A stretch of 64,000 nt of DNA from Candidatus Pacebacteria bacterium UBA6180 (GTDB lineage Bacteria > Patescibacteriota > Microgenomatia > UBA1400 > PJMF01): positions 13,174 through 77,173 of the forward strand of contig DITQ01000002.1 of assembly GCA_002422165.1 (NCBI GenBank), written 5' to 3'. Shown piece after piece: positions 18,691-45,868 of this stretch (position 1 is its first letter; the number at the start of each line of letters is the position of its first letter). The translations under genes were made by a program, and so were the position numbers. The notes beneath the pieces are model-generated. The model saw only the letters and a program-made list of their open reading frames with translations. It was not told where the DNA came from and searched no databases.

Positions 18691-19842
18691 TTAGTGTAAC
18701 ACATTTTTGGTGCTAATTTTCAAATTCGGTTGTCGGTCGGTCGATTCTAAGTCGGCCACTTCTCCTCGCTCTAGCTGATAGCCTGCCACCAAGCCAATCA
18801 TGGCGGCATTGTCAGCGCAGAGTTTCTTGCTGTAAGGCACGCGCAGGGGAATTTTTTTGCCACTTTGCTTGGCGTATTGGCGCAAGGTTTGGCGCAAAAT
18901 CTGGCGCAAATTGCTGTTGGCTGCTACTCCGCCGCCTAGCCAAACCTCGCTGATGGTCGTGACGGGTGCTTGGCCAGGTTGTAAATGGCGCAAGAAATTG
19001 CGACTGGGATAAACTCTCTTCTCCAAATTTGGACTAAGTAGGATTCGCTCGAGTTTGTAGGCGATTTGCTCGAAAACAGTTGCTTGTAGTGTGGCCGCTA
19101 GATCATAGGTAGCTTGTTGGTCTAGTTGGTCTTGGTTTTCTAGCTCGTTGATCAGGTTGCGTGCAGCTGTTTTGATCCCAGAGAAACTTAAGTCAAAGTT
19201 GGTTTGGGCGGTCATGGCTCTTGGCAGGGTGAAACGATCCTGGTTGCCTTTTTTGGCAAATTTCTCGATCAAAGCGCCTGCTGGATAGCCAAGGTTGAGC
19301 AGGCGACCGACTTTATCTAAGCATTCGCCAGCAGCATCGTCGATGGTGTGACCAAGTCGTTGGTAATAGCCAATTTTTTCAACCAAAATGAACTCGCTGT
19401 GGCCACCAGAAACGACGATTGCTAGCGCTGGCAGTTTGGGCGTTGGGAGGGCAGCCAGCGCTCTACCAGCCGGTACGGCCAAAGGCGATAAAGCGTGAGC
19501 TTCGATGTGATTGACGGAGATCAATGGCTTCTGGTGTTTCCTGGCCAATTCTTTGGCTTTGGCCAAACCCACTTCCAGAGCAGGTGCTAAGCCTGGACCG
19601 ACGGTGACGGCAATGGCTGCGATGTCCACCCAAGTCGCTCGGGCTTGCCGCAGAGCTAGAGCGATCGCTGGAGCGAGGTTTTCGCGGTGGGCTTGTTTGG
19701 CCAGAGTGGGAAAAACCCCACCGAACTGTCGGTGAATTTGGTTTTGCGAGGCGACGACGTTGCTTAGGACCTCTTGACCCATGACCACGGCGACGCTGGT
19801 GTCATCGCAGCTAGTGTCGATAGCGAGAATATTAACGCTCAT
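18691..19842 (-). CDS. tsaD: t6A threonylcarbamoyltransferase TsaD
   Basis: ILAIDTSCDDT, GPGL, VNHIEAH, VSGGH, DDAAGE, GGGVAAN, DNAAMIG; start at ATG 19842. Confidence 0.96.
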   Translation of the reverse strand: MSVNILAIDTSCDDTSVAVVMGQEVLSNVVASQNQIHRQFGGVFPTLAKQAHRENLAPAIALALRQARATWVDIAAIAVTVGPGLAPALEVGLAKAKELARKHQKPLISVNHIEAHALSPLAVPAGRALAALPTPKLPALAIVVSGGHSEFILVEKIGYYQRLGHTIDDAAGECLDKVGRLLNLGYPAGALIEKFAKKGNQDRFTLPRAMTAQTNFDLSFSGIKTAARNLINELENQDQLDQQATYDLAATLQATVFEQIAYKLERILLSPNLEKRVYPSRNFLRHLQPGQAPVTTISEVWLGGGVAANSNLRQILRQTLRQYAKQSGKKIPLRVPYSKKLCADNAAMIGLVAGYQLERGEVADLESTDRQPNLKISTKNVLH

Positions 19843-20908
19843 GGATGTGAATCTTTCTCCGGTTTTCTTCCTGGTTAAAGTCAAGAGTGACGATGGGGGT
19901 TTGTGGCGCGAAGCTGAGCCACTGAGCAATTTGCGAAAACCACTCGATGACCACGACATTGTTTGGTTGCACTAGACTTGGGATGTCAAGTAGATTCAAT
20001 TCCTCCTGACTTTCAATTTTCCAGACGTCGAGGTGATAAAATTTGCCGCTAGTTTGCAAACGAGTGTACTCGTACTCATTAAGGTAAGAATAGGTGGGCG
20101 AACTAATGGTTTCCTTGATATCCAAGAATTTGGCCACGCCTTTGGCGAAAATAGTTTTACCCATGCCTAGGTGGCCGTTGAGGGCGAAGACCAGACCACT
20201 TTTTTGTAGCTGATTGAGGTGATTGAGCATCAAGCGCCCAGCTAAATCGAGAGTTTCGTTTTCATTTTGACTCCAGAGAGTTTCTCCTTGGTTATCGTTG
20301 AGTGAGCCACGCAGGGCGATTGGCGTGGAGAGAGTGGTGTCAACGACCACCGAGGGTTCGTTTTGTGGCAATTCGCCAACATCGATAATCAGATCGATCA
20401 GGGATTGTTGTTTGGCAGATAAATTGTTCAAAACATCGTTGACAGTGTGTGGGCGTTTTTTGCCTGAGGCATTGGCCGAAGTGCTAGTGATGGCCCTTCC
20501 AAATTTGGAAACCAAATCGGTGATTAGTGGATAAGCAGGGATGCGAATACCCAGAGTGCCAAACTCAGAATTGACTCGTGGATCGACGAGGTTTTTGCTT
20601 CGTGAGACGACGGTGAAAGGTCCAGGCAGGAAATTTTGGTAAAATTTCTGTGCCTGGTCGTTGATTTCGACGTATTTGGCGGCCATAGCTTGGTCGCTGA
20701 CGGCGATCGACAGTGGTTTACCTTCACGTCGTCCTTTGTAGCGTAGTAATTTGTCGATGGCGGCGGCGCTCTCTGCATCTGCCCCGATGCCGTAGACGGT
20801 TTCAGTTGGATAGATCAGCAAGCCGCCTGCTTTCAGGCACGCCACCGCCTGTTCTAGCGCCAGCGCACACTGTTTCTGGTCATTGATGTCGAGTTTAATG
20901 ATTCGCAT
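19832..20908 (-). CDS. tsaC-tsaE: fused TsaC (YrdC/Sua5) - TsaE (YjeE ATPase)
   Basis: N-half PTETVYG, KGR, TSANASG; C-half GHLGMGKT, SSPTY, HLDVW, VIEW; start at ATG 20908 (alternative 20929). Confidence 0.9.
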   Translation of the reverse strand: MRIIKLDINDQKQCALALEQAVACLKAGGLLIYPTETVYGIGADAESAAAIDKLLRYKGRREGKPLSIAVSDQAMAAKYVEINDQAQKFYQNFLPGPFTVVSRSKNLVDPRVNSEFGTLGIRIPAYPLITDLVSKFGRAITSTSANASGKKRPHTVNDVLNNLSAKQQSLIDLIIDVGELPQNEPSVVVDTTLSTPIALRGSLNDNQGETLWSQNENETLDLAGRLMLNHLNQLQKSGLVFALNGHLGMGKTIFAKGVAKFLDIKETISSPTYSYLNEYEYTRLQTSGKFYHLDVWKIESQEELNLLDIPSLVQPNNVVVIEWFSQIAQWLSFAPQTPIVTLDFNQEENRRKIHIHER

Positions 20909-20937
20909 TTCCAAAACATATGTTACCATAAGGATCT

Positions 20938-21281: not shown

Positions 21282-21308
21282 TTAGCAGTCCATAATGCTT
21301 ATTGCTAA
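21282..21308 (+). promoter_or_regulatory. CIRCE (HrcA operator) of groESL
   Basis: TTAGCAGTC-N9-TATTGCTAA versus consensus TTAGCACTC-N9-GAGTGCTAA. Confidence 0.82.
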
Positions 21309-21379
21309 GTAATAATTTTTATGTTAAATTTCCTGCTACAAACTTAAATTACAAGTTAGTTTCAAAAAAAGGAGGTCTC

Positions 21380-21769
21380 ATGTCAGATCTAAACGTCAAG
21401 AAAATTCAGCCCACCAAGGGTTACGTCTTGGTTGAACCAAGCAAAGCAGAGGCCAAAACCAGCTCCGGCATTATTTTGCCAGAAAACGACAGCGAGAAGC
21501 CCCAGCATGGGGTAGTACTCGCGGTGGGTGAGGCAGGTGGCTGTTGCAGCGATGATGGTTGTTGTGAGCCCAAAGGTGACCACGGCTGTTGTGGCGGTGG
21601 TTGCGGTGACTGCGGTTGTGATGATGATAAGGGCGAGTCTTGTTGCGAAGCTCCAGTTAAAGTTGGTGACAAAGTTATCTACAAGAAATGGGGTGGCAAC
21701 GACTTCAAAATCGGCGAAACAGAATATCAATTCCTCAAGTTCGAGGACATTCTCGCCGTTATCAAATAG
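21380..21769 (+). CDS. groES: co-chaperonin GroES with Cys-rich insertion
   Basis: GGAGG SD before ATG 21380; KTSSGIILP mobile loop, GVVLAVG, VKVGDKV, EDILAVI. Confidence 0.95.
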   Translation: MSDLNVKKIQPTKGYVLVEPSKAEAKTSSGIILPENDSEKPQHGVVLAVGEAGGCCSDDGCCEPKGDHGCCGGGCGDCGCDDDKGESCCEAPVKVGDKVIYKKWGGNDFKIGETEYQFLKFEDILAVIK

Positions 21770-21807: not shown

Positions 21808-23442
<1,635 letters not shown>

Positions 23443-25659: not shown

Positions 25660-26526
25660 ATGCACACAAGTCTAATCGACGCGCAAGCGAGATTTACTGA
25701 AAGTTTAAAGACAGGCGGCAAAGCCCACGCCACGGTCATTGCGTACAGCAAAGACATTGAACAGTTGGCTGATTTTCTAAGTAAAAGATCCAAAACCCTA
25801 CTTAGCGAAGTGTTGACCGACGATGTCGAGGATTTCAAGGAGTTGTTGCGTAAACAACGCTACACCACTAAGTCCATTTCTCGCAAAATTAATTCTATCA
25901 AGGCTTTCTTTCGTTTTTGTTTGAGTGAAGGCTTGCTTAGTAGCAATCCAACCGAAGATATTTCTCAACCTAAATTTGATCAGTCTCCTCCTCGCATTTT
26001 GTCTCGCCTAGAATACCGCGCTTTGCGTGATTCTTGTCGGGCCGATGCTCGCATGCACGCCATCGTGGAGATTTTGCTCCAGACAGGGATGCGTATCAGC
26101 GAATTGGCTAATTTGCAAATTACTGACATCGATCTCGAGCGCGAGCTAATCTACATTCAAGCTCAAAATTCTCGGGAAGCCCGCCGCATTCCTCTTAACT
26201 CCGCAGCCAAGAAATCTGTTATGGATTATTTGCGTTTACGTCCTCGTACCAAAGAAAAAACTCTTTTTCTGACCAAAACTTGTCGCCCCTTCTTGGTGCG
26301 CAATATTCGCACCGCTATTGATCGTTACTTCCGTTTGGCTGGTATTAAAGATGCCAAGGTCAATGACCTGCGACATACTTTTGTCATCGAGCAGCTCAAG
26401 GCTGGCACACCCTTAGTTTACGTCTCGCAGTTAGTCGGGCACAAGCGCATTACCACCACCGAAAAATACCTCCACTTGATTGAGGCTCCAGACATGCAGC
26501 CGAATATTAAGATTGAAGAGTTGTAA
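25660..26526 (+). CDS. XerC/XerD-family tyrosine recombinase
   Basis: SAM-like N-domain, TGMRISE, NDLRHTF, VGH, TTEKY. Confidence 0.9.
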   Translation: MHTSLIDAQARFTESLKTGGKAHATVIAYSKDIEQLADFLSKRSKTLLSEVLTDDVEDFKELLRKQRYTTKSISRKINSIKAFFRFCLSEGLLSSNPTEDISQPKFDQSPPRILSRLEYRALRDSCRADARMHAIVEILLQTGMRISELANLQITDIDLERELIYIQAQNSREARRIPLNSAAKKSVMDYLRLRPRTKEKTLFLTKTCRPFLVRNIRTAIDRYFRLAGIKDAKVNDLRHTFVIEQLKAGTPLVYVSQLVGHKRITTTEKYLHLIEAPDMQPNIKIEEL

Positions 26527-41449: not shown

Positions 41450-41476
41450 TTAGCAAACTCTCGATATGATTGCTAA
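41450..41476 (+). promoter_or_regulatory. CIRCE upstream of hrcA overlapping the promoter
   Basis: TTAGCAAAC-N9-GATTGCTAA just downstream of TTGACA (41442), overlapping TATGAT. Confidence 0.8.
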
Positions 41477-41513: not shown

Positions 41514-42230
41514 ATGATCGATTTAGTTGCCCGTCAAATCCAAATTTTACGCGCCATCATCGAAGAATTCATCGAGACTGGCATGCCGGTTGGTTCAGAA
41601 AAGATTGATAAGAAGTTCAACATCGGTGTTTCCCCAGCGACCATTCGTAATGAAATGGTTTATCTGACCAAACAAGGCTACTTGATAAAATCTCACATCA
41701 GTGCCGGCCGCGTGCCTACTGCCCTGGCGATGCGCCTCTACATCAACGAATTAGTCAAGGAAAAGGAGCTCTCTGTTGCCGATGAAGTGGGCGTCAAAGA
41801 AAAAATTTGGCGCTATCGCCACCAGATGGAGGACTTGCTTTACGAGACTTCACGAGTTTTGGCAGAAAAATCGCACGCACTTGGTATCGCCATGAACGCT
41901 GAGGGCAGGATGTTTCACTCTGGCTACGCCAATTTATTGCAGATGCCGGAATTTTACGACATCAATTTGACCAGACAGGTGCTGCAGATGATCGAGGAAG
42001 ACCGAATTATGGATCAGATTTTTGACAGCAATCGCAGCGAAAACACGGTCAAGGTTGTTTTTGGTCAAGAACTTGGCAATCGTGATCTGGATCAGATCAG
42101 TATCATGTTTGTCGAGTTGCCAAATAGTAATTGCCGCTTTGGCGTTTTGGGTTCGACGCGCTTTGATTATTCTTACGTTTTGCCAATAATGAAATATTTC
42201 AAAGGGTTGATTGAGAGCATGGAGGAATAA
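41514..42230 (+). CDS. hrcA: heat-inducible transcription repressor HrcA (short form)
   Basis: RQIQILRAII, PVGS, SPATIRNEM, HISAGRVPT, GSTRFDY. Confidence 0.95.
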   Translation: MIDLVARQIQILRAIIEEFIETGMPVGSEKIDKKFNIGVSPATIRNEMVYLTKQGYLIKSHISAGRVPTALAMRLYINELVKEKELSVADEVGVKEKIWRYRHQMEDLLYETSRVLAEKSHALGIAMNAEGRMFHSGYANLLQMPEFYDINLTRQVLQMIEEDRIMDQIFDSNRSENTVKVVFGQELGNRDLDQISIMFVELPNSNCRFGVLGSTRFDYSYVLPIMKYFKGLIESMEE

Positions 42231-44986: not shown

Positions 44987-45868
44987 ATGTCAGCCAAGCG
45001 TGATTATTATGAAGTTTTGGGAGTGAGCAAGTCTGCTAGTGCTGCGGAAATCAAAGCCGCTTATCGCAAGTTGGCGCTCAAGTTTCACCCCGATCGCAAC
45101 AAAGAATCCGGCAGCGAAGCGAAATTCAAAGAAATCAACGAAGCTTACCAAATCCTTTCCGACGCCAAAAAAAAACAAACCTACGATCAGTTTGGTCATG
45201 CTGCTTTTGACCCATCCTCTGGTATGGGAGGCGGCCAAGGGCCTTTTGGCGGTGGTTTCGGTGGTTTTGGGGCCGGTCAGGCTGGCGGCTTCAACTGGTC
45301 TTCTTATTCTAGTGCTGCTGGCGGAGAAAACATTGATTTTGGTGATCCTTTTGAAATTTTTGAACAATTTTTTGGTGGTGGTTTTGGCGGCGGTGGCTCA
45401 AGACGCCGCCGCCCACACTACTCGATGAAAGTTGATTTCATGGAAGCTATCGAGGGGGTTGAAAAAGAAGTTGAGATCGAGGGCAAAAGACAAAAAATCA
45501 AAGTGCCCGCTGGTGCCAACGATGGCACCCGCTTGCGCTTCACTGATTTCGATGTCTCGATTGATGTCGGCACTCACCCCAAATTCAAGCGCGATGGCTA
45601 TGATATTTTTATCGATCAATTAGTCGACTTTAGTACTGCTGCCCTGGGTGGCCAGATCGAAGTTGAGACTTTGACCGGCCAGATCAAGCTCAAAGTTCGC
45701 CCCGGTACTCCCTCGCATTCTCTAGTGCGTCTCCGCGGCGAAGGTGTCACTCACTTGCAGCGTCGTGGTAAAGGTGATCTCTATGTACGCTTAATCGTTA
45801 GCGTTCCTGAAAAATTGACGAGGGAGCAGAGGCAAGCCTTACAGAATTTGACTGAGACGGGGCTATAA
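44987..45868 (+). CDS. dnaJ: DnaJ-family chaperone lacking the zinc finger (class B)
   Basis: J domain with HPD, G/F region, DnaJ C-domain; no CxxCxGxG repeats. Confidence 0.92.

Follow-up and report, generated by a model that had tools for sequence, protein, structure and literature searches.

A cysteine-rich loop, predicted to bind metal, at the roof of GroES in Candidatus Pacebacteria and related lineages

Introduction

Helicobacter pylori HspA is reported to bind Ni through a C-terminal His/Cys tail (PMC4671568, PMC5116745). The main metal domain of HspA is described as C-terminal and His-dominated (8 His, 4 Cys) and as serving Ni enzymes. A review also describes a proposed apical site, His45/Cys51/Cys53, that is tied to zinc delivery (PMC6271281). 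A second departure from the canonical co-chaperonin is found in T4 gp31, RB49 CocO and clusters of viral GroES, which are reported to lack the roof β-hairpin. Its absence from gp31 and viral GroES is described as being without loss of function (PMC5649160, PMC6318259), so the hairpin is not required for the GroES family.

Here we describe the groES gene of Candidatus Pacebacteria bacterium UBA6180, which lies in an analyzed stretch of 64,000 nucleotides (the window). The encoded protein shares the barrel, the mobile loop, the groEL operon and a CIRCE-like site with canonical GroES/Cpn10 (PF00166; 1p3h, 1aon, 4v4o), but the roof β-hairpin of those proteins gives way to a 42-residue Cys loop. 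The hairpin is missing as it is from gp31, CocO and viral GroES; those proteins are reported to delete the roof, whereas this cellular housekeeping GroES swaps in a longer, thiol-rich loop. The likeness to HspA lies in a sole, essential-type GroES with Cys/His ligands. The two differ in that the HspA apical site is described with three ligands and the window loop is internal, acidic, Cys-dominated, hypervariable and likely recurrent. The C-terminal His/Cys domain B of HspA is absent from the window protein. A preliminary description of the locus had cited the C-terminal metal extension of HspA as the precedent; the extension holds up, and the apical site proposed in the review (PMC6271281) means that it is not the only one.

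By analogy, the window GroES is most likely to work like HspA, as a co-chaperonin with added metal ligands. HspA would be the precedent for such ligands, and the features new here would be the replacement of the roof, the size range of the loops and their recurrence across the class; our literature search, which left subscription papers mostly outside its reach, found no description of these three.

Metallothioneins and the His/Cys/Gly tail of SlyD are further analogues. Window-type loops share with metallothioneins a Cys content near 25%, arranged as CC and CxC, an absence of aromatic residues and no predicted fold without metal. They differ in being acidic, where typical metallothioneins are Lys-rich, in belonging to an oligomeric chaperone rather than a small stand-alone protein and in having no fixed Cys pattern. 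Judged by sequence, homology does not place the loop among the metallothioneins, nor does architecture make the protein an HspA.

Results

A single groES with an intact core

The groES gene (21380..21769, + strand) encodes a protein of 129 residues. A profile search of the 0.99-Mb, 98.8%-complete genome found one Cpn10 locus, this gene, with a score of 86 bits against a cut-off of 21.1. The Pfam Cpn10 (PF00166) match is split between profile positions 1-44 and 53-93. A Shine-Dalgarno sequence, AGGAGG (21370..21375, +), supports the ATG at 21380. The gene is upstream of groEL (21811..23442, +) with a gap of 41 nt, and the 543-residue GroEL has an ordinary Gly/Met tail without a His/Cys tail. 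The IIL hydrophobic triad of the GroES mobile loop (residues 31-33; 21470..21478, +), which we take to be the GroEL-binding element, is intact, and the translated C-terminus is normal and carries no tail. AlphaFold2 built the GroES barrel with strand pLDDT values of 70-84 in the core. Foldseek with this model gave 1p3h as the best match (E 8.4e-9) and 33 matches at E <= 0.001; among the matches listed, all were chaperonin-10. The window protein is GroES by profile, fold and context.

NF001535, a 118-position NCBIfam GroES model, scores the protein at 46 bits against a cut-off of 215, and its positions 2-46 align to residues 8-52. We infer from its length that this is the HspA model; HspA residues 45-53 would then map, by its numbering, to the start of the loop described below. 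Two neighboring loci were also recorded. A XerC/D-like tyrosine recombinase gene (25660-26526, +) lies 2 kb downstream of groEL, and a 365-residue open reading frame (19832-20929, −) that fuses a Sua5/YrdC (TsaC) domain to TsaE overlaps the start of tsaD.

A cysteine loop at the roof position

The roof segment spans AVG to VKVGD. It is a loop of 42 residues (51-92; 21530..21655, +) rich in Cys, Asp and Gly, with 11 Cys, 1 His, 11 Asp/Glu and a net charge of -9. Its Cys core is 35 residues long (21542..21646, +; 105 nt) and contains 11 Cys, including four CC pairs, together with 1 His and one CxxxCxxC motif. The 35 residues quoted in the preliminary description, with 11 Cys and 1 His, are encoded there exactly and in frame. 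The same segment measures 13-14 residues in close plain relatives. Given this difference in length and the loss of its strands, the roof hairpin is replaced rather than interrupted. The preliminary description was right to put the loop at the roof; its reading of an insertion within the hairpin does not survive. AlphaFold2 models loop residues 55-87 at low confidence (pLDDT <50), and residues 53-69 of a short Roizmanbacteria loop also fall under 50.

The Cys core is the most Cys-dense 35-residue window among the 3855 open reading frames of the genome, with 11 Cys against 7 in the runner-up, and when the bases of the loop were shuffled 10,000 times, 11 Cys never resulted (mean 1.9). These two results argue that the loop is not a product of chance. 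The only tandem repeat found in it is weak (a 9-mer x 2.6, score 32). An assembly artefact is ruled out by the presence of a related loop in each of the 14 remaining genomes of the genus. One contig of sequencing run X1, which may be the window's own source, covers 21505-21687 with no difference; contigs of runs X2-X4 have gaps within the loop and showed no joint or difference.

Distribution of cysteine roofs

Cys loops of 28-101 residues are present in all 15 genomes of the genus (g1). Cpn10 was matched in 138 of the 140 genomes of the family (f1), a tally that includes one unpublished genome, G099, with a plain-length match. The roof was examined in 77 of these genomes, of which 32 have a Cys loop, one has a 10-residue roof and 44 are plain; the remaining genomes were scored plain from match length, by which very short Cys roofs would escape. 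Cys loops occur by genus in g1 (15/15), g43 (5/5), g64 (4/4), g8 (4/4), g11 (1), g31 (1) and g63 (2/3). One close relative, G119, has dropped the loop completely. Its roof has 10 residues and no hairpin, as in gp31, and the same holds for the cellular GroES of G029 and G032. Another genome, G016, carries groESL twice, in operons that differ in core type, and the second groups outside f1.

Two protein searches gave 158 clusters, 109 of them with a roof loop of 17-115 residues and 2-25 Cys. A GroES of another core type, P0166, with its own Cys roof emerged from a profile search against 1.84 billion representatives. Among its best 120 relatives, several of which are named Ca. Roizmanbacteria, 119 have a roof of 16-24 residues with 2-7 Cys. 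In genome searches within the class, 7 of the 30 top loci (families f23, f26 and f195) and 8 of 30 further loci (f168, f173, f171 and f19) have Cys roofs; the ranking followed similarity to queries with such a roof, so these counts are no estimate of prevalence. With f1 counted, eight families of the class contain Cys roofs, and most of the eight also have plain members.

A phylum sample matched Cpn10 in 333 of 401 genomes. None of the 42 loci outside f1, among 44 examined, has a Cys roof, and the ranking favored close cores, so that absence is not implied. Pattern scans returned 134 frames, 65 of them GroES-like and most of these matched out of frame; they held six clear Microgenomatia-type Cys roofs and four other cores with 2-3 Cys. 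GroES proteins of other core types with 2-3 roof Cys were recorded at L302, L400, L324 and L428, one of them on a viral contig.

Origins of the cysteine roofs

Topology tests were used to compare a single clade of Cys-roof genomes with the observed trees. A single clade is rejected on the GroEL tree (p-AU 1.3e-5, 59 rows) and on that of the GroES core after the loop was cut out (p-AU 1.8e-5, 56 rows, 3 skipped). Since both trees reject it, transfer of groES alone is no explanation. An 87-row GroEL tree, which leaves out G654 (no groEL) and thins the Pacebacteria rows to 29, requires 11 roof changes, 9 of them forced by well-supported branches. The loops of f1 alone fall into three groups, yet a single origin is not rejected within this family (p-AU 0.148). 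Cys loops likely arose several times, and the roof changes may include losses. The plain roofs of the class share a hairpin that resembles that of distant GroES, which would make repeated gain the simpler reading.

The shortest Cys roofs are near the length of the hairpin and have 2-4 Cys. Plain roofs of 14 residues, roofs of 15-18 residues that carry 2-4 Cys, and long loops form a series, which suggests that Cys substitution came first and expansion by slippage later.

Some plain-roof GroES proteins of the class (for example L090, L096, L181, L226 and L240) have a covarying Cys pair that flanks the base of the hairpin. A Cys before the AVG glycine is accompanied by a Cys before the proline in 38 of 40 plain sequences, compared with 12 of 206 sequences that lack the first Cys. 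The covariation persists across 7 independent pairs (median sign-test p 0.031). In a chaperone of the cytoplasm, such a Cys pair may form a disulfide or act as a clamp that grips metal with its two Cys.

Selection retains cysteine

Loops that align without gaps were used to follow the Cys codons. The 46-residue loops of G005, G010 and G012 retain all 13 Cys. Nine of the 13 codons differ synonymously and none non-synonymously, with 8, 4 and 6 pairwise TGT/TGC differences, and the other loop codons show 5-7 replacements per pair. By a hand estimate, 9 synonymous and 0 replacement events under neutral transitions have a probability of (1/3)^9, about 5e-5. This pattern indicates that the cysteines of the loop are under purifying selection.

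Distant loop pairs gain and lose Cys along with length, and G001 and G008 disagree at 7 of their 24 aligned Cys positions. The Cys fraction is 0.25 +/- 0.05 and length correlates with Cys number (r = 0.94, 30 loops). On these alignments, selection retains cysteine content and not a fixed pattern. The preliminary description had looked to conservation of the Cys positions in relatives; the positions are conserved between close relatives and not at depth. A single defined ligand site is unlikely on these comparisons, since positions vary across the family and only the content, about 25%, is fixed.

Composition is restricted in other ways. Codons TGG, TAY, CGY and TTY are almost absent from the loops (2, 4, 3 and 3, versus 292 TGY). 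The loops of two distinct GroES subfamilies resemble each other, with 24% and 23% Cys, 27% and 23% Asp plus Glu and under 1% aromatic residues; the loops are also rich in Gly, Ser and Lys. Their mean net charge is -8. Outside the roof, Cys is found 10 times in 13,877 residues in one subfamily and once in 10,339 in the other. CxC is enriched in the Pacebacteria set (z 8.8), CC is enriched in the Roizmanbacteria set (z 3.0) and CxxC is depleted in both (z -4); these z values are overstated, as the rows are kin. At least 3 His are present in 14 of 109 loops, and some loops add runs of His. Even Cys counts are slightly commoner than odd (69/109 and 70/119 loops). Of the 109 Pacebacteria-type loops, 25 have the CxxxCxxC motif seen in the window loop; among the 119 of Roizmanbacteria type, 3 have it. 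CxxCxxC is present in 3 loops of each type. No metallothionein family scored above its cut-off in 14 proteins; the best match was PF01439 in one of them (E 0.33), and the window loop gave none.

Heat-shock control and companion genes

A CIRCE-like inverted repeat with 3 mismatches to the consensus lies upstream of groES (21282..21308, +). A second (41450..41476, +) precedes an hrcA-like gene (41514..42230, +) that heads grpE-dnaK-dnaJ. The window has 2 such matches versus 0.02 expected, relative to what we take to be the CIRCE consensus; both sites deviate from it in the inner arms. The hrcA-like product matches TIGR00331 (E 1.7e-52) at 179 bits, below the 197 cut-off, and is short, with 238 residues against the 338 positions of the model. 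The CIRCE-like sites before both genes make the usual heat-shock control of groES likely, with the hrcA-like product as the likely regulator of groESL.

The window dnaJ (44987..45868, +; 293 residues) encodes the sole J-domain protein of the genome. It lacks the zinc finger, as first described, and has no CxxCxGxG repeats. The link to the loop implied by that description fails: PF00684 was above cut-off in none of 41 genomes of the order, 23 of them plain-roofed, in a search that was positive in 13 of 14 controls and that counts domain matches, dnaJ itself not being confirmed in the 41. Compensation for DnaJ by the loop was rejected because the finger is missing across the order regardless of roof type, and a zinc-finger-less dnaJ appears from these searches to be common to the order and no part of a loop mechanism.

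Other candidate companions were also rejected. An [FeFe]-hydrogenase is found in 35 of 140 family genomes and 16 of 32 loop genomes and in none of five loop genera. The CsoR family (111/140) and Mn/Fe SOD (121/140) do not follow the loop. All three genes are present in g1 and common in plain genomes, and none was found in the genomes searched of the g8/g11/g31/g63 loop clade; without Mn/Fe SOD or a sensor of the CsoR family, these four genera stand apart from most of the family. The mobile loop gave a further candidate, with IYL/LYL in 0 of 106 parsed sequences (of 109 Pacebacteria-type loops) versus 34 of 49 plain ones. This link is not obligatory, because f19 loops occur with IYL and plain sisters with IIL. 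Genome G000 has at C7:1503-4258 a NuoF-like open reading frame followed by a 576-residue [FeFe]-hydrogenase-like one with intact-looking H-cluster motifs (PF02906 E 7e-84). As to maturation of the hydrogenase, HydF was not found in G000 and there were only two radical SAM matches.

Discussion

The position of the loop at the roof and the selection on cysteine itself make a thiol-based function likely, as far as sequence can tell. Proteins rich in Cys, acidic residues and Gly, poor in aromatics and rich in CC and CxC resemble soft-metal sponges rather than redox or Fe-S sites. On this resemblance we favor, as somewhat better than an even prospect, a metallothionein-like crown of roof loops predicted to buffer Zn, Cu(I) or Cd. 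His-rich loops fit metal ligation better than disulfides.

In such a crown, GroES would remain heptameric and cap GroEL, as its sole copy and conserved core imply; with core and mobile loop intact and no second copy, it should still serve GroEL. Since gp31 and viral GroES function without it, the roof would be a site tolerant of change and dispensable for folding. The cage could scarcely hold seven loops when each has up to 115 residues, and the longer ones would therefore project outward. Each loop, predicted to be flexible, would fold around the metal it captures, and capacity would rise with length. By metallothionein metal:Cys ratios, 11 Cys would hold roughly 3-4 divalent ions per loop. 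The short versions (15-25 residues, 2-7 Cys) would hold about one ion per subunit or staple adjacent subunits. The 77 apical thiols of the preliminary description are arithmetic on a presumed heptamer. The lid would provide a metal buffer beside the folding cage with no separate gene, and the buffer would be stress-inducible because groES is likely HrcA-controlled and abundant.

Several observations count against the metal crown. G000 already has two long open reading frames bearing HMA domains and a small HMA protein. The signal upstream of groES is of the heat-shock type, the loop is acidic and there is neither a metallothionein family match nor a companion gene. The base Cys pair of plain relatives hints that disulfides may matter.

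This last point leads to redox or structural thiols, in which reversible disulfides or persulfides would pin the roof or absorb oxidants, any metal binding being incidental. The base pair, the slight excess of even Cys counts, vicinal disulfides reported for the HspA tail (PMC5116745) and the g8/g11/g31/g63 loop clade without Mn/Fe SOD in the genomes searched all fit. Against these stand the depletion of CxxC, the usual redox motif, the common odd counts (11 in the window loop), the His-rich variants and SOD in 14 of 15 g1 genomes, and the base pair is equally a possible two-Cys metal site. We consider this reading unlikely. A broader proposal, rather unlikely in our estimate, is that the roof is a metal/thiol module reinvented many times in one class, in forms that range from a clamp of two Cys to a crown of 25, and that it links metal supply to folding by the chaperonin, with a lid that stores Zn/Cu and loads clients through an open dome or gates the cage by metal or redox state.

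A metal-loading port or gate would hand Zn or Cu to clients through an open dome, or let metal gate the dome and the GroEL cycle. The loop replaces exactly the dome-closing element, the change recurs at one single site and zinc delivery is proposed for the HspA apical site (PMC6271281). Hypervariable length (17-115 residues) and Cys number (2-25) are unlike a precise transfer site, however, the loop is lost in G119 and no client gene among those tested co-occurs. These points make a port or gate quite improbable.

Neutral low-complexity expansion, by slippage of TGY/GGY/GAY-rich DNA in a tolerant loop, would account for the extreme length variation, the weak 9-bp repeat of the window loop, the dispensable roof and the loss in G119. 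It is largely refuted by Cys codons that change only synonymously in close pairs. The near absence of the neighboring codons TGG, TAY, CGY and TTY and the same composition in separate lineages also oppose it; no other open reading frame of the genome has such a tract, and slippage accounts for length and not composition. We regard it as very improbable.

Least probable of all is an Fe-S cluster store or scaffold, suggested by CxxxCxxC in the window loop and 25 of 109 Pacebacteria-type loops and by the [FeFe]-hydrogenase-like gene of this genome and 13 of 15 genus genomes, since CxxxCxxC is confined to 3 of 119 Roizmanbacteria-type loops, CxxCxxC is rare in both types, the fixed CxxC-type ligand set of an Fe-S scaffold or carrier is contradicted by CxxC depletion and a variable pattern, a NifU-type scaffold is already encoded and the hydrogenase does not co-occur with the loop, being not found in loop genera g64, g8, g11, g31 and g63 and present in plain g44 (4/4) and g49 (4/8). 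The Fe-S site raised in the preliminary description is weakened accordingly.

Metal buffering by the roof loop, the reading we favor, bears on a protein that is among the most conserved in bacteria and that is nearly Cys-free outside the loop in these lineages. An acidic Cys loop keeps reappearing at its roof in one class of ultra-small symbionts. This recurrence points to an unrecognized selective pressure and, probably, to an additional function of the lid. What was the case of one genus, Helicobacter, thereby widens into a natural series whose members have 2 to 25 cysteines at the same site. The series makes directly testable both the purpose of the roof and whether the chaperonin contributes to metal handling. 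The loop may also illustrate a way in which reduced genomes achieve metal buffering with no additional gene.
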